From positions 1 through 41,376 of the IMG/VR virus record IMGVR_UViG_3300033067_001585: a stretch of 41,376 nucleotides of DNA; one strand, written 5' to 3'. Origin of the DNA: a virus (lineage: Duplodnaviria; Caudoviricetes). Shown here piece after piece: positions 4,394-38,331 of the stretch. Every line of letters starts with the position of its first letter. Position 1 is the stretch's first letter. A model generated the notes under the pieces. The model worked only from the letters and a program-made list of their open reading frames with translations. It made no database searches and was not told the DNA's origin. The position numbers and the translations under genes are program-made.

Positions 4394-6213
4394 TATAGTT
4401 TCAGCATTTCGAGTTGAACGTTGTACAGGTCGCCGCTATCTACCGATGCGTCGAACTGTATATTTTTCACGATTGCCCGGGTTTCCCCGAGCTGGTGGTA
4501 AAACCGGATCACCGGCCGATCCCACCGAAGCATCCGCCGCACGGCCCCGATGGGCATTACGGCGCGCATTTCAAGCGGCTCCTTGTCTTGTAGTTCGGCC
4601 CAGCCTTTCCAGTACGTTTCGTACATGCCGGTTTCGCCTTCCCAGGCGAGCGTGAGCGCACCTATCGCCGTGTCGGCGATATCGGTATCATCGCTGCTGC
4701 TCATCTGGTATGGGTTTGCCTCATCATCATCCTGCTCGCCCCGGTCAAAAAATACCCGTGGCGCAGCATTGCTCGCAGCGTTACCGCTGGCCGGTCGGCC
4801 GGACAAGTCCTCGTACACGCACATTTTCCAGTAGTACAGGAATTTGTACCGCTTCGTTTCGGTCACGAGCGGCGCGAGTTCGGTTTCTACCCGCTTGCCG
4901 CCGCCACCAATCACGTAATTCGGCAGTCCTTCTTTCGCGTCGTTGTCGTCCGGCTGAAATGCCAGCGTGACGCCCGTTTCAGGGGTGCGCGTAACCTTGA
5001 AATCCGTCAGGATGTCATAGAACGGCTCCGTTACCCGCAGCTGATCCGTGCGCTTGCGCAGCCATAGCGTTTTGCCCTGTTGCTGCACGTACAGGTTGAA
5101 AAAACCGCACACGCGCTTCAGATAGTCCGCTGCGCTCCAGTCCGGCACACTGTTGCCGACCTTCCACTCGGTCACGAAAGCGTTCATCCACACTTCCTCG
5201 CCAGCCAGCGTAATCTGTTCCGGCTTGTCGAGCGTGTAGTTCGAAAAAAGCAGTGCCGCGCTGAAATCCGCATCCTCATACACATCGCCAGCCCATGCGA
5301 GGCCAAGCGTGTCGGCTATAGCCGTGAAAATATACTTCAGGCGGACATACGGCACGAATACCGCGTCCCACGATTTTTCCACGTCGGGCACGTTGAACAC
5401 GAAATTGCCATCGTGCCAAAAATTCACATACCCGTCGTAGGTCGGGTTCGCGTCGCCGTACAAGCCCTGGTGGTACACCGTGGGGAAGGCGAGCATATCG
5501 CCCGGCGTAGCGTATAGCGCTGCGATATAGTTGTGCAGGTTTTCCTGCCCGTTCAGGATCGCATTCAGCAGCGCCGCGTAGGCAGCGCCGGCCACGGTGG
5601 GCGCTTGGCCGGTATAGTTTTCCTCGATCAGAAAACCATGTATTTCGATGCCGAAAATCGTCGGCGTTTCGAATGTGTCGAACACCCATGTCGTCACGCC
5701 GCCCGAGTAGGTCGGGCCGGACATGAGCGATACCCCGGTGATGTCGTTCAGTTCGCCCGCCACATCGCCGGTCAGCGTGATCGTGATGGTGCCGCCGCTC
5801 CCGAAAACCGTCGGCGGCGCATACTCGGCCACCACGAAGCTATCGAGCGTCACCGTGGGCAGTATGTCCCGTATTTTCAGTTCCTGTAGCCGGTCCAGCA
5901 GTTCGCGGTCGCGGTTACCGAACACACATTCCAGCCTGGTAGCCGTAGCGCTCGATACGCGCAAGCGGCCCGGCTGAAACCCCGCTCCACCCAGCCACAT
6001 ATCTACGTCCACATCGGGGCTGCGGCGCGTAGCGTCCAGCCGGTTGGCGTGGCGCAGTAGCCGCAGGTTGCGCGGCGTGGCTGGTAGCGAAAACGGGAAC
6101 GAGAAAAACCGCGCCACCACGTCCGGGTCGAACGCGGGATTGCTCCCGGTTACGTCCAGGCTCGCGCCGTCGGGCAGGTCGAAATGTTCTTCAGATGTGC
6201 GCAGTGCGAGCAT
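4393..6213 (-). CDS. Tail tip / baseplate hub-like protein
   Basis: 606 aa; N-terminal NPAF..FSFPFSLPATPRN motif seen in siphophage tail proteins; position in tail block. Confidence 0.6.
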   Translation of the reverse strand: MLALRTSEEHFDLPDGASLDVTGSNPAFDPDVVARFFSFPFSLPATPRNLRLLRHANRLDATRRSPDVDVDMWLGGAGFQPGRLRVSSATATRLECVFGNRDRELLDRLQELKIRDILPTVTLDSFVVAEYAPPTVFGSGGTITITLTGDVAGELNDITGVSLMSGPTYSGGVTTWVFDTFETPTIFGIEIHGFLIEENYTGQAPTVAGAAYAALLNAILNGQENLHNYIAALYATPGDMLAFPTVYHQGLYGDANPTYDGYVNFWHDGNFVFNVPDVEKSWDAVFVPYVRLKYIFTAIADTLGLAWAGDVYEDADFSAALLFSNYTLDKPEQITLAGEEVWMNAFVTEWKVGNSVPDWSAADYLKRVCGFFNLYVQQQGKTLWLRKRTDQLRVTEPFYDILTDFKVTRTPETGVTLAFQPDDNDAKEGLPNYVIGGGGKRVETELAPLVTETKRYKFLYYWKMCVYEDLSGRPASGNAASNAAPRVFFDRGEQDDDEANPYQMSSSDDTDIADTAIGALTLAWEGETGMYETYWKGWAELQDKEPLEMRAVMPIGAVRRMLRWDRPVIRFYHQLGETRAIVKNIQFDASVDSGDLYNVQLEMLKL

Positions 6214-6728
6214 TATCCCCGGAAAAGCAAGGGTGAACTGTACAGGGTGTGGTAACCAAGCCCGAACGCTACGGCGCTAAGGCTCGCATCTACCAGGTAG
6301 TGCCACACGGGTTTCTTTTCGCCCAGCGTAATCGTAACGCCGGACAGGAACAATGTGCCCCGGTGCGCGGCGCCGAAAAGTGACTTCGCATCGGTGCTCC
6401 ACGCCAGCATGGTCGTAGAGCCGGGGAAGCGCGGTCCGTTGCGCGGATCCGCACCGGCATACTGGTTTCGCCACGATATCGAGGCGTCCCACCACTGCCG
6501 GTTCCAGCCGGCCGGGATCCGGTTCGGCGTGTGTACCACCGTCTCGTGGATGCCGTACAGCGCGCCGGATAGCAGCGCAAGCCCTACAGCCGGCACATTC
6601 GGCTCGTGTGTGGTGCGGGAGTGCGCCGCTGCCCCGGGTAGGCCCGTTTCGAGGACTACGCGGCGGCGGGTACAGGATTGGCCGAGGAGCAGGGCCAGTA
6701 TAAGCGCTAAAAGTGCGATTGCTTTCAT
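6213..6728 (-). CDS. Putative lipoprotein or membrane protein
   Basis: MKAIALLALILALLLGQSC signal ending in Cys, plus further hydrophobic segments. Confidence 0.55.
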   Translation of the reverse strand: MKAIALLALILALLLGQSCTRRRVVLETGLPGAAAHSRTTHEPNVPAVGLALLSGALYGIHETVVHTPNRIPAGWNRQWWDASISWRNQYAGADPRNGPRFPGSTTMLAWSTDAKSLFGAAHRGTLFLSGVTITLGEKKPVWHYLVDASLSAVAFGLGYHTLYSSPLLFRG

Positions 6729-6729
6729 C

Positions 6730-7728
6730 TTAGTAGTATTCTATGACGATGACGAGGCCTTGTGCGCCATTTCCGCCGGCGCCGCTGTTGCCGCCGTTAA
6801 GCGATGCTCCACCGCCGCCGCCAGCGCCGCCATAAAGCCCGCCGTTTCCACCATTTCCACCTGTTTGACCGGGGGTGTTTCCGCCGGCAGCGCCGCCAGC
6901 AGCAGATGTTCCAGCACCTTTTGTAAGAATTGCGGTACCCTTGAATTGCGATGCTAATTGCAGTGATACATTATCGCCACCATTAGCTCCATTTCCGCCA
7001 CTACTACTTGAATTGCCGCCGGGGCCTGATATTGCAGCGGAAAGTGCATCGGAAATAGTATAATTCCGTGATCCGCCCCCGCCGCTTCCTGTACTATTTG
7101 CTATGGGCTTCCCGCCGCCGCTTCCGGCGCCCTGCGTGGAAATCGTCCCTGAAAAGCCTGAACCTGCTTGTGTGGCGCCATTCGTCGCTCCACCGGCGCC
7201 GCCTCCACCACCTAATGTTGTTGTTAGAATGCTTCTGCCAGGAGTACAATTTGTTATTGCGGTAGCAACCCCCCCGTTTGTTATTGCGTTAAGCCCCCCA
7301 GTGCCGCCTCCAGAGCCGGGGACTATTGCGAACCGCCCAAAAGATGTAGTATCACCAGCATTACCATTCGCTCCATTCGTGTCATCCGTTGTCACAGCGG
7401 CGCCGCCTGACCCGCCGGCTCCAATTGTAACGGAAACAGTACTTGGCAAGCTGTCTTCTGTCATGAAAAGTCGCAAAAGCGTACCGGCGGCGCCGCCGCC
7501 GCCGCCATATCGCGCAGTGCCGGCCGCGCCGCGCCGCCCACTTCCACCCCCCCCCCCTGCACCTAAAACAATTATTTGTGCGGCGACTATGCCAGCCGGT
7601 TTTGTCCAGGTTGTTGATGAGGTGTACTCTCGTACAATATACCCCCCGCCACTCGCATCCACATGGTATATCTGCCCGAATACTAACGCGGGGCAGATCA
7701 ATAGAAGAAGTAAATGTATTAGTTTCAT
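6730..7728 (-). CDS. Glycine-rich tail-fibre-like protein with N-terminal signal peptide
   Basis: MKLIHLLLLLICPALVFG|Q; the TWTKPAG..VLGAGGGGGSG ... GAQGLVIVIEY glycine-rich domain is typical of phage fibres. Confidence 0.7.
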   Translation of the reverse strand: MKLIHLLLLLICPALVFGQIYHVDASGGGYIVREYTSSTTWTKPAGIVAAQIIVLGAGGGGGSGRRGAAGTARYGGGGGAAGTLLRLFMTEDSLPSTVSVTIGAGGSGGAAVTTDDTNGANGNAGDTTSFGRFAIVPGSGGGTGGLNAITNGGVATAITNCTPGRSILTTTLGGGGGAGGATNGATQAGSGFSGTISTQGAGSGGGKPIANSTGSGGGGSRNYTISDALSAAISGPGGNSSSSGGNGANGGDNVSLQLASQFKGTAILTKGAGTSAAGGAAGGNTPGQTGGNGGNGGLYGGAGGGGGASLNGGNSGAGGNGAQGLVIVIEYY

Positions 7729-7731
7729 GTG

Positions 7732-9036
7732 CTATCCTTTTGTAGCGACCCAGCCCGTCGTCGTGCCCATGTAGATGAACTCGACGTACCCACCGGCCAC
7801 GTTGATGATATAGTTTTGTTCTACCGAGTACAGCTTCTGGTTGGCTGTATCGAAATCTATTGTGATGTTGTTTGTAGCGGCCGTGGCCTCTGCATCCACC
7901 ACGGCAAAGCGGTCTCCGATGGCTGGGCTGCTTGGTGGCGTTACAGTCAGTGGCGCCGCACTACAGTCCACGAGGTTAATGCGTCGCATGGTGGCTGTGA
8001 AATTGCTCGCCTCTATCGTCTCGCTGCTGGCTGGCTGCGGTGCGGTAGTGGATACGGTAAGGTCGTTTGTGTTGTTCGTCACGGTGATGCCGACACCGGC
8101 TACGATTGTCTTGAATTCCAGATTAACTCCTGTTTTTTGCTTGTACCAGCCTGCGCCGGAGCCAACATTGCTGGCGGTATTGCTCTCTCCACTGCCACCA
8201 CCGCCAGCCCCTTGCCAGTCGGAGCCATCATAGTATTCCATATTGTTTACAGTAGTGTTGAGCCGCAGCGACCCCTCTACTGGTGTGGCCGGCCGCTGCG
8301 CTGTAGTCCCCGCCGGAATTTTTAGCGCGTTAGTCCCGTGCATATATAGCTGGTGGTCAGCGTTCACGGCCCCACCGATCCCCACATTCGTTCCGTTGAA
8401 TGTGAAGTTGGTGCTGCCCGTTACGGTTGTAGTACCGTTCCAATATGTCAGTTGCCCACTTGTACCGTTTCCGATTATGCCGGCAGTGTCCCACGTCAGT
8501 ACGCCACCGGTATTCCAGGTCAGTTGTTGCCCGTCTGTACCCGCAGCGGCTGGTAGCGTATAATAGATATCTGCGCTTTGCGCCTGCGCTCGAAACGATG
8601 TGAAATTAGCGCCAATCGGTTCCTCCATCCTTAATTCAACAGTATCATTGCCAACACCTGCCAGCAGCAATATCGGCGAATAGATAGAAACTAATGATGT
8701 GTCTAAGTTTATTTGGTGTGTATTATACTTAGATTGCCACGCTACCGCTCCATACTCGTCATCCACGATGAATGCGTTCGTAAAATTGCTGTAGCTAATG
8801 TCGAACGAACTGTTACTCGAAACTTTTGCGCTGGCTAAGGGGGCTATAGTCCCAGACCCGGAATATATTCCGTTGTTGTCCGTACCGCTATCCAAAAACG
8901 CACCAAGGCTGTCAAGCCTGCATAGCCACGTTACATCCCCCTTTTGCAGCTTCACGACCGTAGCCGTTGTGATGCTGGGCAACTGCGCAAACGCCGCCGC
9001 CGGGATAAAAAATAGAAGAAATAATAGTTTTCTCAT
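7732..9036 (-). CDS. Tail-fibre-like protein with signal peptide
   Basis: ATG at 9036 gives MRKLLFLLFFIPAAAFA|Q; fibre motifs YTLPAAAGTDGQQL, GTTAQRP and EYYDGSDW. Confidence 0.7.
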   Translation of the reverse strand: MRKLLFLLFFIPAAAFAQLPSITTATVVKLQKGDVTWLCRLDSLGAFLDSGTDNNGIYSGSGTIAPLASAKVSSNSSFDISYSNFTNAFIVDDEYGAVAWQSKYNTHQINLDTSLVSIYSPILLLAGVGNDTVELRMEEPIGANFTSFRAQAQSADIYYTLPAAAGTDGQQLTWNTGGVLTWDTAGIIGNGTSGQLTYWNGTTTVTGSTNFTFNGTNVGIGGAVNADHQLYMHGTNALKIPAGTTAQRPATPVEGSLRLNTTVNNMEYYDGSDWQGAGGGGSGESNTASNVGSGAGWYKQKTGVNLEFKTIVAGVGITVTNNTNDLTVSTTAPQPASSETIEASNFTATMRRINLVDCSAAPLTVTPPSSPAIGDRFAVVDAEATAATNNITIDFDTANQKLYSVEQNYIINVAGGYVEFIYMGTTTGWVATKG

Positions 9037-9043
9037 GTTCGTA

Positions 9044-10111
9044 TCACATTTGGGTGGAGTAGAACCAGGTACCCGTACTGCCGTTCCACTTGCACTTGCA
9101 GGTGGCGCCATTCCCCTGGCTATAGATTGTTTTCGTGGATGCGGTGTCGAAAAAAGTTTCCGATCCAGCCGGGTCTATCGTAACTCCGAAAGTATCAGAG
9201 CCGGTCTTCAGGAATTCGTATGTCCATCGGTTCGTGGTGGCATTGCAGGCCGGTAGCGTGATCGTGATTGCACCCGTAAGGGTGCCAATTTCAAGGAAAT
9301 TATCCGTGTGGTCTATAGTCGTATTAGCATTCTCTGTAGTCCAGCTGGATGCTTCTACCCCGTTGGCATTGAATGCCGCCGCCGATGCCGATGCCGTACT
9401 CGCAACCCCCGCGCTACCCGTCACCAGTGCGCTGAAAGTTTTCGCGCCGGCAAACGTCTGTGTGCTGGTGCTCACCGTGCCCCGGTTGCTCGCGTCGGCA
9501 TTTGGCAGGTTCAGCTCCAGGTTGGAGCCATTACGCGCGAAGGCGATTGCCGCCGCTGCAGTCGTGATCGTAGGCGACAGGTACACATTCGCAGTACCAT
9601 TGGAGGCCAGTACCGTGCCGTCACCGCCAACGGCCGTAACGCCGGTACCGCCGTTGCCGATGGGCAGCGTACCCGATACGTGTGTAGCAAGCCCTATTTT
9701 ACCCCAACTGGGGGCAGTAGAAACGCCGCCCGATATAAGCGCATTCCCCGTAGCAACGCCCGCAAGTTTCGAAAGCGCCGTGGCTCCGCTCGCAAACAAG
9801 ATATCGCCCGTGGTGTACGACGACTGCCCGGTACCGCCGTTGGCGGCTACGAGCGTGCCGGCCAGCGTGATCGTGCCGGTGGTGGTGACTGGTCCACCCG
9901 TGGTGCTTAGGCCCGTGGTGCCGCCCGATACATCCACGCTCGTCACAGTGCCGGATCCGGCATTCACGAAGGCTACGAGGGAGTCGAGGCGCTTGAGAAA
10001 GGTGTTGTTACCATCCTGAAACTTGATCTGGCTGGCGTTTGTCAGCGCCGGGATTTGTGCCATAGCGGCCATCGGCGCGAGCAAGGCGAGAAAAAGAAGT
10101 AGTTTTTTCAT
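9044..10111 (-). CDS. Tail-fibre-like protein with signal peptide
   Basis: MKKLLLFLALLAPMAAMA|Q; GTVTSV and L..ANGGTG fibre repeats; Cys-containing C-terminal domain. Confidence 0.72.
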   Translation of the reverse strand: MKKLLLFLALLAPMAAMAQIPALTNASQIKFQDGNNTFLKRLDSLVAFVNAGSGTVTSVDVSGGTTGLSTTGGPVTTTGTITLAGTLVAANGGTGQSSYTTGDILFASGATALSKLAGVATGNALISGGVSTAPSWGKIGLATHVSGTLPIGNGGTGVTAVGGDGTVLASNGTANVYLSPTITTAAAAIAFARNGSNLELNLPNADASNRGTVSTSTQTFAGAKTFSALVTGSAGVASTASASAAAFNANGVEASSWTTENANTTIDHTDNFLEIGTLTGAITITLPACNATTNRWTYEFLKTGSDTFGVTIDPAGSETFFDTASTKTIYSQGNGATCKCKWNGSTGTWFYSTQM

Positions 10112-10123
10112 GTCAGTAGATTG

Positions 10124-10840
10124 TTACATGCTGTTGTGTAGCCACCGCCCCGTGCTGCCATTCCACTGACAGGTGCAGGCGAGCGGTGTGCCTGGTGAAA
10201 AAATAGTTTTTGTAGATGCTCCGTCGGCGAATTTTTCGGATCCAGCCGGGTCTATCGTCACAGCGTAGTTGTCGGGGCCTACCTTGACGAATTCGAACCG
10301 CACGTTGTCGTTCGCCGCATTGCAGGGCGGCAGGTTGAGCGAGATGCCGGCCGATAGCGTATCCACGAACACCTGGTTGTATTCGATTCCGACGGTCATG
10401 CTCGTCGTGACTACATCGTACAGGTTAATTCCGTTCGGGAGCCACTGTGCGCCGGTCCACCGGAGCACCTGCCCCGTGGTCGCGCCAAGTTGGTTGAGCG
10501 TGCCGCTAATGGTTGTTGTGGTCGGGTCGTTCAGTACGGAGAAGCCGACGTCGCCGCTGCTGCTGAATACGAGCGTGTCGCGCTGGGCCACGGCGAGCGT
10601 GTCGTCTGCGATGACGTGTGCGCCCGCGCTATCCCGGAAAAAATCGTACACCGCCTTGGCCGTCGGCAAATGCCGGTGCGTGCTGCCTGCGGTGATCGCC
10701 ACCACGAAGCTATCCACCTGCGCCGTGCGCAACTGTAGCCGCTGCGTAGCGCGTAGCAGTTTTGCCACCACCTCGGCCGGTTGGGCCTGCCCTTGCAAGG
10801 CAGCGAATAGCAGGGCGGCGAGAATGAGTATCTTTTTCAT
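10124..10840 (-). CDS. Tail-fibre-like protein with signal peptide; C-terminal domain paralogous to 9044-10111
   Basis: ATG at 10840 gives MKKILILAALLFAALQGQA|Q; GQVLRWTGAQW motif; shared VTIDPAGSE..STKTI..CxCxWNGSTG. Confidence 0.7.
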   Translation of the reverse strand: MKKILILAALLFAALQGQAQPAEVVAKLLRATQRLQLRTAQVDSFVVAITAGSTHRHLPTAKAVYDFFRDSAGAHVIADDTLAVAQRDTLVFSSSGDVGFSVLNDPTTTTISGTLNQLGATTGQVLRWTGAQWLPNGINLYDVVTTSMTVGIEYNQVFVDTLSAGISLNLPPCNAANDNVRFEFVKVGPDNYAVTIDPAGSEKFADGASTKTIFSPGTPLACTCQWNGSTGRWLHNSM

Positions 10841-11253
10841 AGGATTAGGAGTGTGATCGTGACGGTGCCGGTGAGCGCCGAAAAGTGGATGGTCTTGCCC
10901 GTGGTGCCGCCGTACAACAGTGCACTGAACGTGCTCACGTCGCCGGCATCCACGATGCCCTCGTACACCAGTTCGTCGGTGCCGGATGACAGGCCAGCCT
11001 TGAATGCCTGCGCCGCGCTGCTCTGCACCGCTATGCCTACCAGCCATTTCCCGGCGGGCACGGTCATCGTGTGCGTAGCGGTGGCCACGGTAGCGGCCGT
11101 GTTGAATCCGATATTGGCCTTGATCCACGCCAACAGCGTCGCCAGCGTCACCTGGCTGGCAGCGGGAGCGCCCGAGTTCCCGGGGAATTGCAGCGGGAGG
11201 CGCGTATCGCTGTACACATTCGACAGCAGCGGAAATAGATGAACCTTCGCCAT
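10837..11253 (-). CDS. Small beta-rich structural protein
   Basis: About 138 aa from the ATG at 11253; stop overlaps the next start. Confidence 0.55.
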   Translation of the reverse strand: MAKVHLFPLLSNVYSDTRLPLQFPGNSGAPAASQVTLATLLAWIKANIGFNTAATVATATHTMTVPAGKWLVGIAVQSSAAQAFKAGLSSGTDELVYEGIVDAGDVSTFSALLYGGTTGKTIHFSALTGTVTITLLIL

Positions 11254-11258
11254 ATTCG

Positions 11259-12971
11259 TTAGGGCAGTTGCCACGCGATCTGAAGCGCATCAAACCAGAA
11301 ATCGCCGCTCGGCTCCTCCCAGGCGTCTGCGTCAGACCCCGATAGTTTTTTCGTGGAGAAATTTTTCATGTCGAGGCGCGGCCTGCACGCGAATTGATAG
11401 GCGTGCAGCGTCTCGTACGTATTGGTCACATCGAATCTGTTGTCGCTGATCTGGAGCGGTATGTACCCGTCGGCGCTCACATCGTATATCTCACCGGCGA
11501 GCAGCATTTCCTGCATCACTTCGGCGTCTGCCTTCCGGATGTAGCCGGTGCGGTACACCAGGCTTGGCACCGCCGACGCAGCGTACTGAAAACTATCGCT
11601 CGCCGTAGCGGCGTAGCCCGGCAGTAGCGGGCGGGTGGCCGTGGATCGTGCAACCTCCACGCGCTTGCCCCATTCGCCGGTGCAGCGGTGGGTTTCGGGC
11701 ACACCGAAACCGTTTAGGTATTGCACGTAGCGCGTGCTTTCGTAGTAGTCGCGGACGAGGTAGAACGTGCGCGGTTCGGACAGGTAATCGCCGCCGTCGC
11801 CCTCCCAGTCGCTGTTGTAATCAACCACGCGGATGGTGTACTTATACGCATCCGGGTTATCGGTGATGTTGATTTCGGAGATGATCCGGCGCAGGTTTGC
11901 AGGGACCACAGCCGCGTGTTTCGCCGGCACCACGAGTGGCGTAGTACCCACAAAAAACAGGGGCGTTTTCGCCGCGCCGCTATACACATCGTACATAATT
12001 ATCTCGATCAGTACCGTCTGCTCGGCCCCGGTGTGGTTGTACCAGGTGAGGTACTCCGGCGAATCCAGCGAAACACGGCGCCCGTCGGGCATCCACGTCA
12101 GGAAAGCATCGGTTTCGTCCAGCGTGCTTAAGTATCCGAAAAATCCGGCCTCCTTGTGTACCGCCTGGCTCACGCCGCCATCCATCGCCAACGCCACATC
12201 GGTGTATGTCCACGGCTGCACCACTGCGGGCGCACCGTACTCTTCGGTGAAGCGTATGTAGTAGTTCCGAAGGTTGTCGGCTACGTACGGGTCTTCGGTG
12301 CTCCACACAGGCACCAGCGGTTCCGTGCGGCTGGCTCGGCAATGTGCCGCGAGCACGCTGCTGATGTCGAAGTACATCAGGCCGTCGGCGGGATTTGGGT
12401 TGCCGGTCAGCTGTGCCACGCGGGTATAGTCGCCGCTGCCGTAGCCCGCCTCGAAGAATACCTCAACCAGCACCCGGTAATTTTCGGGCGTAGCGTCGTC
12501 CACGCCGTCGGTGTCTTGCGATACCGAGAAGCCGCCCGTGTTCGCTATTTCTACGGTCCACGTTACGTCCGTGTCGCGGGCCGTGAGGCGTATCGTCAGT
12601 TGGCCGAGTATAGTAACCGCTTCGCCGGTAAAAAATGGCGCAATGCGCGGGTGTCCACCCACGATTTCGGCCACACGCGCCCAGTAGGCTGCGCCGGTAC
12701 CGGCCCACGAGTTGTCCGGCAGTTCGTCCACCGCATCTGGCGATGCCACGGCCGTGAATTCGACCGATGTAGCGGATCCGTCCGGCTCCGTATAGTCCAC
12801 GGTCATGGTGCCGCCGGTCGAGAATCTGCCCGCTGTGGTCACGTCCATGCGGGCACTTACTCCCTGCGCTGCGTACAGGTCGCCGCCGGCCTGCGCTGCC
12901 TTCAGGCAGAGCACCACCGGATTGCGAGCGAGTACGATGTCCGCAGGTTGTTCGATTATCGTGAGCGCCAT
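11259..12971 (-). CDS. Distal tail / baseplate-region protein
   Basis: 570 aa; C-terminal YLNGFGVPET..G motif seen in Bacteroidota phage tail proteins. Confidence 0.6.
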   Translation of the reverse strand: MALTIIEQPADIVLARNPVVLCLKAAQAGGDLYAAQGVSARMDVTTAGRFSTGGTMTVDYTEPDGSATSVEFTAVASPDAVDELPDNSWAGTGAAYWARVAEIVGGHPRIAPFFTGEAVTILGQLTIRLTARDTDVTWTVEIANTGGFSVSQDTDGVDDATPENYRVLVEVFFEAGYGSGDYTRVAQLTGNPNPADGLMYFDISSVLAAHCRASRTEPLVPVWSTEDPYVADNLRNYYIRFTEEYGAPAVVQPWTYTDVALAMDGGVSQAVHKEAGFFGYLSTLDETDAFLTWMPDGRRVSLDSPEYLTWYNHTGAEQTVLIEIIMYDVYSGAAKTPLFFVGTTPLVVPAKHAAVVPANLRRIISEINITDNPDAYKYTIRVVDYNSDWEGDGGDYLSEPRTFYLVRDYYESTRYVQYLNGFGVPETHRCTGEWGKRVEVARSTATRPLLPGYAATASDSFQYAASAVPSLVYRTGYIRKADAEVMQEMLLAGEIYDVSADGYIPLQISDNRFDVTNTYETLHAYQFACRPRLDMKNFSTKKLSGSDADAWEEPSGDFWFDALQIAWQLP

Positions 12972-26489: not shown

Positions 26490-26524
26490 CAAATGTGCCA
26501 CCCTACCCCGCCCCGAAAAAGGAC
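26490..26524 (-). promoter_or_regulatory. Repeated phage promoter motif, copy 7
   Basis: GTCCTTT-N20-CACATTTG. Confidence 0.68.
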
Positions 26525-26529
26525 GAAAT

Positions 26530-26594
26530 AAAAAAGCCTCCAGAGCTTACGCGCTGAAGGCTACCCCAAAAAACCAAATGAAAACTTCTATTGC
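26530..26594 (-). ncRNA. Putative small RNA of about 65 nt ending in an intrinsic terminator
   Basis: TACATTTG at 26607-26600, a U-rich non-coding stretch, then a GUAA-loop hairpin (26535-26562) and U-run. Confidence 0.4.
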
Positions 26595-26633
26595 CTGGAC
26601 AAATGTAACGTGTATTGATTGAATGTGCAATGG

Positions 26634-26852
26634 TTATGCAGTTGCTGCTTTTACTGCCCACATGGCAGCTTCTTCGTATGTCCTCTGTGCGATAATAACA
26701 AGCCTCTCGTCTTTCAGCTTCAGCGATTCAACCAGGTTGATAAGTTCTGCTGTTTTTTGCTTGATCTGGTCCACGGTAGAATCAGCAGACGGATTGAATG
26801 ACGTGCGCACGCGAGCTTCGCCGATGGTAAGTTCTTGTTCTGTGTTGTGCAT
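26634..26852 (-). CDS. Acb2/Tad1-like helical-hairpin protein (putative immune-signal sponge)
   Basis: 72 aa; FNPS..V..IK...A.LI...R....A....EEAAMWAVKAAT pattern resembles the Acb2/Tad1 hairpin family (recall). Confidence 0.6.
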   Translation of the reverse strand: MHNTEQELTIGEARVRTSFNPSADSTVDQIKQKTAELINLVESLKLKDERLVIIAQRTYEEAAMWAVKAATA

Positions 26853-26877
26853 ATTTTTGAATTTAATGTGTGAATGT

Positions 26878-26941
26878 GCCTAACTATCACCCACCGGAAA
26901 CCGCCGCAGTGGCGGCGGCTTCGGTGGGCTTTGAGTTAGCC
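26878..26941 (-). mobile_element. attC-like recombination site 1 (64 bp)
   Basis: Minus strand GGCTAAC...GTTAGGC enclosing an imperfect hairpin cccaccg(g)aa.ccgccgc / gcggcgg.ttcggtggg; methyltransferase stop lies inside TAAC. Confidence 0.75.
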
Positions 26942-27649
26942 GACAAGTGAAAGCGTTGCCACTCGATCCAGGTACTCGGAAAGGTAGCCACCAATAAATT
27001 TTGTGTAAGCCGGAGGAATTCCCTCCGAAATTTCAACATCCTTGAATTTGTATTGAATGGGAATTCCCATTGCAAAGTGCCATGTTTTGATCCCGCTACC
27101 CTGGTCAAACTTAGGCCGCCAATTTTTCGGCAGCCCTTTGTTTTTTCGGTAGCCTTGTTTCCCGATGATGGTGCAAAAGTCTCCTTCCTTAACCGACCCA
27201 ATCCGCTTGCTCACACCTGGTTGCATCATCCACCAATTCCCCAACTCAAAATGTCGTTTCCGCATCACATTAAGTCCGAACATCCAGCCATGAAGTACTA
27301 TGTCAGGCCGAACCGGTGCAGTTGGTACATTTTCAATTACATACGGTAGCCCAATCAATTCAAGTGCTTCGCGTGTAGGCTTAATCAAGTCAGCATAGAC
27401 CTTGCCTTGTGCGCGAAACATCGCCGTTGATTGGCTGTATTTCTGACATGGAGGGCTGGCGTGAATTGCATCAAATTGTCTGCAATAGGTTGTGTCGGCC
27501 AAAATTTCCAGCGCGTCAGCCTGTATCCAGGTATCACCAGCATAGCACGTTTTCTTCTCAATGTCAACGCCTGTGACATGGAAGCCGGATTGCTTGTAGC
27601 CAATTGCCGCAAGTCCTGCGCCGCTGTATACATCGAGGAGTTTTTTCAT
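26936..27649 (-). CDS. C5 DNA cytosine methyltransferase (orphan)
   Basis: Motif I DVYSGAG, catalytic SPPCQ, IENV, and R.R.F. Confidence 0.85.
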   Translation of the reverse strand: MKKLLDVYSGAGLAAIGYKQSGFHVTGVDIEKKTCYAGDTWIQADALEILADTTYCRQFDAIHASPPCQKYSQSTAMFRAQGKVYADLIKPTREALELIGLPYVIENVPTAPVRPDIVLHGWMFGLNVMRKRHFELGNWWMMQPGVSKRIGSVKEGDFCTIIGKQGYRKNKGLPKNWRPKFDQGSGIKTWHFAMGIPIQYKFKDVEISEGIPPAYTKFIGGYLSEYLDRVATLSLVG

Positions 27650-27662
27650 AATATTAGAATGC

Positions 27663-27728
27663 TGCTAACCCTGCATGGCTGTCAATACTTCCTAAGCGTC
27701 AGCACTTGCAGTCATGCGCCAGTTATGC
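27663..27728 (-). mobile_element. attC-like recombination site 2 (66 bp)
   Basis: Minus strand GCATAAC...GTTAGCA; imperfect hairpin gcatggctg/cagtcatgc; stop of the 68-aa ORF lies inside TAAC. Confidence 0.75.
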
Positions 27729-27929
27729 CGAATGAATATCAATGAAAATAAATACGTGGTAATCCCTGGAAATCAAATAGTTTTCAGCATCCTTTTTAGC
27801 CCACTCCTTCACGGTACTTTCGGGAATGTCGCGGTCTACATCATCATATCCTATTGGGATTAATTTTGTTTCAAATAGAGGGCCAAGGCCTCTACGCACC
27901 CGAAATTCGACATTGTATTGATAAGCCAT
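27723..27929 (-). CDS. 68-aa hypothetical cassette protein
   Basis: AT-rich ORF filling the space between two attC-like sites. Confidence 0.65.
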   Translation of the reverse strand: MAYQYNVEFRVRRGLGPLFETKLIPIGYDDVDRDIPESTVKEWAKKDAENYLISRDYHVFIFIDIHSA

Positions 27930-27957
27930 TGTGTTGAATTTAAAAGTAAAAAAATCA

Positions 27958-28022
27958 GCATAACCCTGCTTTCCCGCCGATGCTTCCTAAGCGAGCGCAC
28001 AGCGGGAAAGCCTCAGTTAGTA
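27958..28022 (-). mobile_element. attC-like recombination site 3 (65 bp)
   Basis: Minus strand TACTAAC...GTTATGC; stem gctttcccgc/gcgggaaagc; shares taaccctgc, cttcctaagcg and cagtta with site 2. Confidence 0.75.
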
Positions 28023-28112
28023 TTGAGTATAATCATCCATCGTCTTGATCCACCACGCCATGATGGCGATCAAGACGATGAATATTAGGAATAGGAAAAT
28101 ATCGGTAGTCAT
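28017..28112 (-). CDS. 31-aa membrane peptide (MTTDIFLFLIFIVLIAIMAWWIKTMDDYTQY)
   Basis: Translated by hand; ATGA coupling to the upstream gene; TAA inside attC-like site 3. Confidence 0.55.
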   Translation of the reverse strand: MTTDIFLFLIFIVLIAIMAWWIKTMDDYTQY

Positions 28113-28726
28113 GTGTCCAGCTTTTTGAAGGTGATGACCCAGACGAAGGGGTCGGAATCGAATGAGCCTTCGCCATTGATGTCATCCCACAACTCCGCGA
28201 ATGAATTCACCGCCGAAAACCCCGACTCCGCCCAGTCGGAAACAAAGCCCTCCTGCTCTGCATCGTATTCACTTATGTCTTTCAGGCGCTCGACACGCAC
28301 ATCCGTTACTTCAAGCATGAGGCGGCATGCGGTGCGGGGCATAAATATGGACGGGCGCCACTTGCATCCTGGTGGTACTTCTGACGAATCGAACCCATTG
28401 TCCCACCCGCCGGCATACTTCGCGCCGGGCTTGTCTGCACGATACTCATATCCGTGGTAAAGACATTCAAGCCCATCACAGCCTGTCTCGTTGTAGCATA
28501 TCTCCGCCCATGTTTCGCGCACCCACAGCCGGTCGCCGGGCATACCGTAAGGGGAAAGAAGACCGTATGTAGTCCCATCTAATTCGTAGAATCCAAGGCG
28601 GTCAACTTCCGACCGCTTAACTTGTCGGTCTGGGCCAAATTTAACGATCCGCCGCGTTTTATTTTTTCGGCCTTCGAGTATGGCGCGCACCATCGGTGCG
28701 ATGAATGAAATTGGACGCTCTTTCAT
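28109..28726 (-). CDS. ASCH/PUA-like conserved phage protein
   Basis: MKERPI.F..PMVRAILEGRK..TRR, GDRLWVRET, WRPSIFMPR, VRVERL.DISE.DA..EG, P.VWVI.F. Confidence 0.8.
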   Translation of the reverse strand: MKERPISFIAPMVRAILEGRKNKTRRIVKFGPDRQVKRSEVDRLGFYELDGTTYGLLSPYGMPGDRLWVRETWAEICYNETGCDGLECLYHGYEYRADKPGAKYAGGWDNGFDSSEVPPGCKWRPSIFMPRTACRLMLEVTDVRVERLKDISEYDAEQEGFVSDWAESGFSAVNSFAELWDDINGEGSFDSDPFVWVITFKKLDT

Positions 28727-29136
28727 ACCAGTTTAAGTTGTTCCGGCCGGGCGTGGTCGCGCCCGTACCGGCGGTTAGTGATGTGTTGAATGACGTCGTG
28801 CCGCAGGTGGCAGCGCTGGCACAGGGCGGCGAGGTTCTCGCGGTCGTTGTTGGCTGGGTTGCGGTCGAGGTGTGCCGTGGCGATGACTATACGGGTGAGG
28901 CTGAAGAACTGGAGCCGCTTGTAGGTCATGGTGCTGGTGGGTTCGATCTGGCCGCTCGCGTTGGTGACTGTATCAAAGCGCACCCAGTCTTTGCCGGACA
29001 GCTCGCGCTGTATGGCCCGGCGCTGGATAACGGTCTGGTGCTGGGCGCCGCACCACTCGCAACACCAGCCCGCGTCGGTTTTGATCTGGTGCGAGAGAGT
29101 CGCCCAGTCGGTCGGGTACTTTTCTTTTTGGATCAT
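28723..29136 (-). CDS. HNH endonuclease-like protein
   Basis: CEWC ... AHLDRNPANN...NL.ALCQRCH. Confidence 0.8.
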   Translation of the reverse strand: MIQKEKYPTDWATLSHQIKTDAGWCCEWCGAQHQTVIQRRAIQRELSGKDWVRFDTVTNASGQIEPTSTMTYKRLQFFSLTRIVIATAHLDRNPANNDRENLAALCQRCHLRHDVIQHITNRRYGRDHARPEQLKLV

Positions 29137-29953: not shown

Positions 29954-30008
29954 GTGTAGTGTGGTTATGAATTTTTAAAAAATCAGGAACCCTTATGTTT
30001 TTCGCTCT

Positions 30009-30149
30009 TACATTTCCTACATTCCTACAATCACTACAGTTTCCTACATCTTCCTACAGAAATCAGGCATTTTGCAAGGGTGCAGGATTTTCAACTTTTT
30101 GATTTTCAGTTCTTTGTTTAGTATGTAGGATATGTAGGAAATGTAGGAA
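30009..30149. repeat. Iteron-like TTCCTACA repeats in two inverted clusters, probable replication origin
   Basis: TTCCTACA at 30014, 30022, 30041 and 30051; TGTAGGA at 30124, 30133 and 30142; T-rich spacer; directly after the helicase gene. Confidence 0.7.
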
Positions 30150-30172
30150 CTATAAATAAGGGGTCAGTAAAA

Positions 30173-37170: not shown

Positions 37171-38331
37171 ATGCGTTCCAAAACAGAACTTTACACGCCG
37201 CGAATTGTCAAGGGCCTTGTCTGGGCAGTCGAGTATTACATCGAACTCCAGGGCCAACGCAAGCGCATCCGCCGCAGCCGCACCGCCGATGGTGTGGAAC
37301 TCAACACCATCACCGACCTCGTTGAGCGCGAAGCCGCCGCCAAAAAAATGGCGCGGGAAATACACCTGAAACTATGCCCGCCGGTGACCCGGCCCGATCA
37401 GACCAACTTCATCGAAGCCCTGAAAATGGCGGTGGAGCTGAAGCACAGCAACAAGGCAAAAACAAACAAGACATTCGGGGAGGTGGCGCGCTGGGTGTCG
37501 GAGTTCTTCTGGGCGCGCGGCTGGCAGAACCTGCGCTGCGGGCACGTGGAGTTCGAACACGTGCAGGCGTATTTCGACTACATCATTATTAAGTTGAAAG
37601 TGCGCAACACCACGCACAACACCCGTAAGAATAACCTGCGCAGCTTGTTCGGCGAACTGGTGCAGCGGGGCTACCTGAAAGAAAACTTTGTGAAGCGCAT
37701 CACCGACCGGCCGGTGGGTGACCCGTTGCGCCGGGCGTTTTCGGAGCCGGAGCGGGCAGCGGTTGCCGCGCATCTGATGCAGCACGACCGCCCGATGTGG
37801 CTGGCCTTCCTGCTGCTGGGCTACCTTGCGATACGGCCCGGCGAAATCCGCGACCTGCGGATCCGGAACATTGACCTGCGCCGGGGCATGATCGTGTTCC
37901 CTGGTGAGCAGAGCAAGAACCGCCGCAATGCGGCCGTGACGATACCGGAACAGATCATACCTATAATAGAGTCGTACAACTTGTCGGAATACCCGGAGAA
38001 CTACTACGTGTTTGGGCGGGCGAAGGGGAGGCACAATTCGGAATTCAAGCCAGGCCCCGAACGCATCGGCATGAATACTATGTACAGCCGGTTCCGAACC
38101 GTGCTGCTACTGCTGCACAAGCGCAGGGTGTTGCAGGACATTCGGGGCTTGTCGTTCTACTCCCTCAAGGACAGCCTTGCGGTGTACCTGCTGGAACAGG
38201 GGGTGGACCTCGAAAGCGCCATGCGGCATTTTCGGCACAGCAGCCTCGAAATGTTCCAACGGTACGTGAAAAGGTTGGGCGTGGTGAATGAAAAAATACG
38301 AGGGTTGCCGGTGGATTTGCCGGTGAAATAA
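37171..38331 (+). CDS. int: Tyrosine integrase
   Basis: SAM-like domain, IRPGEIRDL (Arg), SKN (Lys), FYSLKDS, RHSS..FQRY (His, Tyr). Confidence 0.9.
   Translation: MRSKTELYTPRIVKGLVWAVEYYIELQGQRKRIRRSRTADGVELNTITDLVEREAAAKKMAREIHLKLCPPVTRPDQTNFIEALKMAVELKHSNKAKTNKTFGEVARWVSEFFWARGWQNLRCGHVEFEHVQAYFDYIIIKLKVRNTTHNTRKNNLRSLFGELVQRGYLKENFVKRITDRPVGDPLRRAFSEPERAAVAAHLMQHDRPMWLAFLLLGYLAIRPGEIRDLRIRNIDLRRGMIVFPGEQSKNRRNAAVTIPEQIIPIIESYNLSEYPENYYVFGRAKGRHNSEFKPGPERIGMNTMYSRFRTVLLLLHKRRVLQDIRGLSFYSLKDSLAVYLLEQGVDLESAMRHFRHSSLEMFQRYVKRLGVVNEKIRGLPVDLPVK

Follow-up and report, generated by a model that had tools for sequence, protein, structure and literature searches.

The phage genome and the setting of the array

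The window analysed here, the whole 41,376-base viral record, represents the genome of a temperate tailed phage and is estimated to be complete, with genes for terminase, a Clp-type protease, tape measure, repressor, integrase, and a primase whose BT4734-like domain points to a host among the Bacteroidota. At the end of its minus-strand early operon, between an HNH/205-aa gene pair on one side and a 142-aa gene preceding the phage head genes on the other, lies a series of small genes separated by three hairpins. Read in coding direction on the minus strand, the series begins with a 31-aa hydrophobic ORF (28017–28112), which is ATGA-coupled to the 205-aa gene and whose TAA stop makes up the upstream half of the outermost joint (28016/28017). 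It is followed by hairpin C (27958–28022), a gene for a 68-aa protein (27723–27929), hairpin B (27663–27728), a gene for a 237-aa methyltransferase (26936–27649), hairpin A (26878–26941), and a gene for a 72-aa protein with an Acb2/Tad1-hairpin domain (26634–26852; PF24729, 41.7 bits against a cut-off of 27). As had been predicted, the genes are AT-richer, with a GC content of 0.40 (68-aa gene), 0.48 (methyltransferase) and 0.48 (Acb2-like gene) against 0.57 for the genome. Since all ORFs are co-oriented, we infer that the array is transcribed from the early operon; a sigma-70 promoter scan, which does not cover Bacteroidota promoters, returned 2 sites where 3.9 were expected.

Two further repeats were noted nearby. 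The 31-aa ORF contains, just upstream of the outermost joint, a strong hairpin (28028–28093) whose inverted repeat is perfect over 12 bp. The second region, 29998–30156, follows the primase gene and is probably a replication origin, with a 25-bp inverted repeat accompanied by short direct repeats of the motif TTCCTACA, an arrangement also found in loci L042 and L058.

Searches with the flanking genes returned no relatives among viral contigs, a single irrelevant match in a scan of genome contigs, and 6 loci in metagenomes, of which one (L034) is syntenic (HNH, 70-aa gene and 142-aa gene) but distant and without an array. Neither the array nor its sites gave a DNA match among cultured phages and plasmids.

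Three hairpins with a common layout

The original prediction described three elements of 64, 66 and 65 bp (hairpins A, B and C, respectively), each reading nnnTAAC, imperfect hairpin, GTTAnnn on the coding strand, with the stop codon of the upstream gene inside the TAAC. Positions, lengths and layout were all confirmed, and each upstream ORF ends at the TAA, this being the 31-aa ORF in the case of the first site. When a fixed rule was applied (coding strand, 40–74 nt from TAAC to GTTA, dG per nucleotide below -0.11), 3 matches were obtained in 26500–28200 and 0 in the remaining genome, and among 2000 dinucleotide shuffles of the region none reached 3 sites (1888 had 0, 110 had 1 and 2 had 2). 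The weakest folder is hairpin B, which is outranked in energy per base by a 142-nt branched stretch at 28639–28780. Our own covariance models, R1 and R2, detect all three sites of the window, though they were trained on them; site C, a member of the training set, scores 71.5 bits with R1. A pattern built from the internal motif common to B and C matched 33 loci, mostly by chance. No hairpin was found downstream of the Acb2-like gene, and the TAAC...GTTA spacer after its stop (26606–26639, minus strand), considered as a family site or attI, was rejected, having no hairpin and no match to R1 or R2.

Complementarity between the ends of each gene had also been claimed. The ends of the 68-aa cassette, GTTATGCTGA and TCGGCATAAC, do pair at 9 of 10 positions. 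For the methyltransferase, the quoted core is complementary at 6/6, but only 7/10 positions pair across ten bases, and the ends of the Acb2-like gene pair at 7/8 as claimed and at 7/10 over the longer stretch.

Each mobile unit is a hairpin with the gene downstream of it

The elements had been interpreted as borders of gene cassettes joined at G/TT, with exchangeable units at 27669–27963 (295 bp) and 26884–27668 (785 bp). Boundaries of a recombination type are borne out by offset complementarity throughout the family and by gain and loss of whole units in relatives, but the coding-strand cut at G/TT is not: the joint is TAA|C, and the two proposed units are not what moves in comparisons. Joints at this position mean that each hairpin belongs to the gene downstream of it, and because the upstream hairpin travels with the gene, the units of the window (both on the minus strand) are 26936–27722 (787 bp), comprising head hairpin B and the methyltransferase gene, and 27723–28016 (294 bp), comprising head hairpin C and the 68-aa gene.

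A search for the methyltransferase returned 4 viral loci. The match to L042 runs from 27731 to 26934 at 88% nucleotide identity, includes hairpin B, whose counterpart ahead of the gene in L042 is 96% identical, and stops at the TAAC of site A. The L045 copy is 85% identical in nucleotides, and the hairpin that follows the methyltransferase after TAA|C is a different one in each of the window, L042 and L045. An 81% relative in L043 and L044 is an ordinary gene without sites. The array that carries the methyltransferase in L045 also contains a two-gene unit (165–1487; 83 aa plus an HTH/IrrE-like protein of 353 aa), a cassette with non-TAAC cores.

The same arrangement holds among other phages. 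We compared 22 pairs of shared cassette bodies, of which 8 were identical on both sides and 14 were informative; the upstream hairpin was more alike in 12 of the informative pairs and the downstream hairpin in 2 (0.63, 0.79). In half of them (7/14), upstream identity was at least 0.91 with downstream identity at most 0.60, and the reverse was seen in none. Identical cassettes in L156, L158 and L165, and likewise in L150 and L152, change neighbours at TAA|C. Over longer times the head is not permanently tied to its gene, the methyltransferase having been seen with three different heads.

A close relative of the phage provided the sharpest comparison. Whereas run X1 contains the whole stretch, the array flanks in run X8 are covered by contigs with about 4–6% other letters. 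One of these (record 20, depth 91) matches 26566–26938 and resumes at 28017, with 241 other letters between. Judging by this alignment, a single different unit has taken the place of the two cassettes, including hairpins B and C, and site A and the Acb2-like gene are retained. The swap points lie within 1–3 nt of the cassette joints, and the outermost joint is preserved. Although small, the window is thus a well-resolved example, since the joints that flank its cassettes enclose another one in a close relative. In a second contig (record 21, depth 11.5), 26640 is joined to 28019 with three letters between, and array, site A and Acb2-like gene are absent; this joint is not a clean crossover. 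Runs X2 and X5 have loose ends at 26934 and 27724.

Complementarity across the family was measured in the six bases beyond GTTA. It averaged 4.15/6 across the gene and 2.38 within the cassette's own site (n = 48 cassettes, a few false sites included), with shuffled pairs giving 2.64 ± 0.16 and a maximum of 3.25 in 5000. Such offset complementarity across the gene suggests circular intermediates.

A third exchangeable cassette, carrying the Acb2-like gene, had been proposed as well. This is probably not the case, as the gene lies beyond the terminal site (see below) and its homologues are bracketed like a cassette in just 1 of the best 80 of 228 loci. A 74% homologue in L058, a related phage with a 64% identical primase, is an ordinary early gene. 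The gene is probably a resident gene or an old founding unit instead of an exchangeable cassette. Since X8 record 21 lacks it along with site A, and since it is low in GC and has a TAAC end, we allow about one chance in three that it entered with site A as the founding unit.

Two site subtypes and a fixed terminal site

A pattern search with site A yielded 45 loci (3 duplicates dropped) and 101 sites of 56–70 nt, 88 of them distinct. Two subtypes were recognized, which differ in spacers and in the start of the stem: 'G' sites (alignment A3, 47 sequences), to which window sites B and C belong, and 'T' sites (alignment A2, 40 sequences), to which site A belongs. The stem of the G sites covaries: 98.5% of alignment cells are paired, with 76 changes affecting both sides of a pair. 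None of 500 shuffles paired as highly, a test that is inflated by related sequences, and slid controls paired at about 38%.

The two subtypes occupy different positions. With the R1/R2 covariance models, every one of the 29 mixed arrays ended in a T site, including all 27 with at least 1 kb downstream; the arrays represent 24 independent clusters. A 9/10 complementary partner was present downstream of 35 of 57 G sites (shuffled, 23%) versus 0 of 46 T sites. The three sites of the window are thus not the equivalent attC sites that had been proposed, since site A is of the distinct terminal subtype that is always last and never heads a cassette. From these two properties it is likely that site A (joint 26935/26936) serves as a docking site in the attI position, where it may be the primary insertion point.

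We also scanned 76 of the 114 loci obtained with a G pattern, many of which were chance matches, and found 17 further contigs. Eight of nine mixed arrays among them end in T; 5 contigs lack a T site although over 5 kb of downstream sequence is available, and the remaining contigs are cut off. Deviating site orders are GGTGG in L243, TGT in L240 and TT in L163, and L222 ends in a T-like variant. In filled arrays, complementarity between the outermost left box and the T right box was not above chance (p = 0.36, n = 23), which counts against a simple model of an empty site split by insertions, since that model predicts complementarity. Lone T sites did show left box/T right box complementarity above chance (p = 0.004, n = 12, not independent).

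Several unusual arrangements were seen in the course of these searches. A chimeric site in L240 (5080–5143), with a G-type 5' half and a T-type 3' half, suggests occasional homologous exchange inside the hairpins. L058 (G003) has no G site but a row of four T-type sites, two of them intact and two degenerate (5293–6482). More than one array (two or three) was found in each of L150, L154, L165, L170, L224 and L248, with a separate T site for every array. L289 contains eleven long-type and short TAAC...GTTA heads within 5.6 kb (5721–11340), and many of its ORFs apparently start inside the hairpin.

Cargo of the cassettes

The 237-aa protein resembles orphan C5-cytosine methyltransferases (phrog_363, E 1e-25; PF00145 just below cut-off) and also matches models of type II/orphan methylases. 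For the 68-aa protein, two homologues only were found (81% and 65%), profile searches gave no family match, and the best ESM Atlas score, 0.82, provided no lead. The Acb2-like protein has no solved relative by sequence. Among 94 cargo ORFs from other phages there were 6 DNA methylases, 2 PAPS-reductase-like proteins and 1 IrrE/HTH protein, and 80 were without a Pfam match. The suggestion that the array is loaded with counter-defence genes accordingly finds support only in the methylases, and most of the cargo (80/94) cannot be assigned by Pfam.

Strand geometry of the sites

The imperfect hairpins are flanked by the inverse core RYYYAAC and the core GTTRRRY, with TAAC and GTTA invariant; the outer three bases do not strictly follow RYY/RRY. 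The 5' spacer on the coding strand is one base longer than the 3' spacer (4/3 in 45 of 50 G sites, 5/4 in 39 of 39 T sites), and extra bases lie on the coding-strand 3' arm in 44 sites versus the other arm in 6, with 39 ties. The bottom strand of aadA7 has the same asymmetry of spacers and extra bases (Table S3 in the available part of PMC9892861), suggesting that the coding strand corresponds to the bottom strand of attC. The observed joints agree with a coding-strand cut at AA|C. The polarity of G.T versus A.C wobble pairs is weak (19 vs 11). The extrahelical base that aadA7 carries three pairs into the L box (same source) is absent in these sites, in which the first 6–8 stem pairs are unbroken and the extra bases lie deeper in the stem than the canonical first extrahelical base.

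Proposed mechanism and alternatives

We consider it fairly likely that the two cassettes form an array that works as a mirror-image integron, with a tyrosine recombinase from outside and a fixed terminal hairpin. In each unit a hairpin head would precede the gene and a short complementary tail would follow it; neighbouring units would be joined at TAA|C and stacked against site A. The coding strand would fold while single-stranded and be cut at AA|C by a recombinase encoded outside the phage genome, and circular cassettes would enter or leave at the terminal site. A broader proposal, to which we give somewhat less than an even chance, is that Bacteroidota phages share a pool of head-first cassettes derived from their own early genes, which dock at a dedicated hairpin, itself a folded single strand, and that an IntI-like enzyme without the IntI insertion mobilizes them in trans; this would amount to a second integron system, in mirror image, serving phage adaptation.

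An alternative is that a canonical host IntI moves the units, which would then be ordinary attC cassettes with antisense ORFs, making the array a phage CALIN in which site A is one more attC. The R-box cores, the 1-nt spacer asymmetry and the single crossover point match attC geometry; moreover, according to the available portions of the sources, 5 of 6 phage attC sites recombined with IntI1 (PMC9892861), and IntI inserts cassettes at genomic attG sites (bioRxiv 2022.09.11.507474). Nevertheless, we regard this as unlikely, since the sites lack the aadA7-like extra base and have an unbroken initial stem, the T site is fixed in position, and in those same portions the sole published site in mirror orientation, P12002L_attC1, failed with IntI1 (PMC9892861). 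Complete integrons are also described as very rare in Bacteroidetes in the part of PMC9024848 available.

The hairpins could instead be conserved RNA leaders or processing sites, with the modules swapped by homologous or microhomology recombination and no site-specific enzyme. They sit 20–35 nt ahead of start codons and fold on the transcribed strand, the methyltransferase has swapped heads, one site is chimeric, and no recombinase has been linked to the G/T arrays. This explanation is quite unlikely, as the joints fall at one base position, TAA|C, beyond the shared hairpin body, the complementarity spans the gene and not the site, for which an RNA hairpin has no need, and the fixed terminal subtype is left unexplained. 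In addition, terminator prediction called none of the three sites, and Rfam gave no family match (nothing below E 0.18). Lastly, it is very improbable that the cassettes are shuffled by the phage's own 386-aa integrase, for although this is the sole tyrosine recombinase in the genome and G001, G003 and L165 likewise combine arrays or T sites with an integrase of 400–440 aa, a PF00589 match is present in only 3 of 33 records (4 of the 33 are not confirmed array carriers) and is missing from the array-bearing G009 and G033, both estimated to be 100% complete.

Candidates for the recombinase

That the phage lacks an IntI was correctly predicted: the only PF00589 match in the genome is the tyrosine integrase just mentioned (37171–38331, plus strand), 10 kb from the array, which was rejected as an IntI with a score of 32 bits on TIGR02249 against a cut-off of 265. 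The same score leaves unsupported the proposal that this protein works the cassettes, and it is probably not the cassette enzyme. In the mirror-image array favoured here the enzyme is likely supplied in trans, because G009 and G033 carry arrays and are without any tyrosine recombinase match. No Xer- or IntI-like gene was found near the G/T arrays of loci L129–L284, save an ordinary phage integrase in L165; the gene for this 402-aa protein is convergent with the array, and its stop codon supplies the distal TAAC of a T site (4442–5709). The pattern match in L272, which lies inside an Xer-like gene, was discarded as a chance one.

Arrays with a longer type of head offer a lead. Long-type heads share arrays with G/T sites in L042, L045, L181 and L307, and 1 of 21 long-type head records (L299) encodes a 276-aa recombinase that starts about 50 bases past the last TAA|C. 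Against TIGR02249 (cut-off 265) this protein reaches 185 bits; its alignment with IntI4 (2a3v) covers 14–175 and 198–272, with 22 residues where IntI4 has 65, so that the protein is without about 43 residues of the IntI insertion region, a region called essential for integron function in the available text of PMC8138268. It has at least 297 relatives, some named Flavobacterium, Panacibacter and Paludibacteraceae. The cultured Polaribacter phage Leef_1 has the same order of heads, small genes, last TAA|C and short integrase. No G/T array was seen beside a recombinase of the 276-aa type, which makes its link to the G/T sites an indirect one, and for three Bacteroidota plasmid relatives of the short recombinase (37–42% identity) the annotation shows no small-gene array. 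In a Flagellimonas plasmid (L313, 4029–5804), an annotated erm(F) lies directly upstream of a 42% identical relative of the short recombinase. By analogy with the related arrays in Bacteroidota phages that it directly follows, the cassette enzyme is most likely an IntI-like recombinase of roughly 276 aa without the IntI insertion, although this is the least certain part of the proposal.

If the proposal is correct, phages own a cassette-shuffling platform that standard integron models, given its different polarity, bulges and enzyme, probably overlook or misinterpret. Such a platform would account in precise terms for the mosaic structure of early regions, and methylases, which could counter host restriction, would be among the genes exchanged rapidly. 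The need for the IntI insertion in folded single-strand recombination would become testable, as would the origin of cassettes, since the methylase has an 81% identical non-cassette relative (L043/L044).

Comparison with known systems

In the available part of Qi et al. 2023 (PMC9892861), 17 phage CALINs with methylases are reported, and these resemble the window in having attC-like TAAC...GTTA hairpins between small genes, no IntI, and an orphan methyltransferase as cargo. The Bacteroidota phage P12002L described there has a window-like layout, with the 'attC1 bottom strand' on the coding strand ahead of the methylase gp35 and with 'attC2' as the repeat ending both arrays, as the terminal site does in the window. 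In the P12002L sequence (L285; 29175–29250 and 37201–37275), each of the two methylase arrays ends in the attC2 repeat, placed exactly at its last TAA|C. From sequence comparison, attC2 looks like the terminal docking site and attC1 like a head in mirror polarity; the available part of the paper treats the sites as canonical attC and mentions only 'divergent directions'. That part contains no description of head-first cassettes, a terminal docking site, inter-phage exchange or a non-IntI enzyme. Nor were phage head-first cassettes, the terminal hairpin or this enzyme described in the available portions of the literature searched (including PMC8618304 and PMC11602168), which takes in little of the subscription journals. 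As far as these portions go, phage CALINs with methylases are already published, and the head-first polarity and the terminal site are not described.

Insertion at attG sites by IntI (bioRxiv 2022.09.11.507474, available part) could explain G-headed single cassettes without a terminal site (L183, L197) and the founding of arrays. However, attG sites are described there as unstructured double-stranded targets, whereas site A is a conserved, covarying hairpin common to many phages.

The array shares with integrons a single crossover within the AAC/GTT core, at which units move as a whole both in other phages and in the close relative, cassette ends that are complementary across the gene, and ordered cassettes anchored at one special site. 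The recombinase genes of L299 and Leef_1 start beyond the anchor and point outwards from the array, which is also how intI is oriented with respect to att polarity. A distinct site occupies the attI position in 29/29 arrays and heads no cassette, yet it is itself a hairpin, and its use for insertion would be by analogy with attI. In contrast to integrons, in which the gene lies upstream of its own attC, the longest ORF is co-oriented in the opposite arrangement in 88 of 90 cassettes, antisense to att polarity with the hairpin ahead of the gene. There is no intI and no Pc, the ORFs reading towards the terminal site and not away from it, and the cargo consists of phage early-type genes. The array thus probably works like an integron but stands outside that class in three respects, namely intI, polarity and the first extrahelical base.
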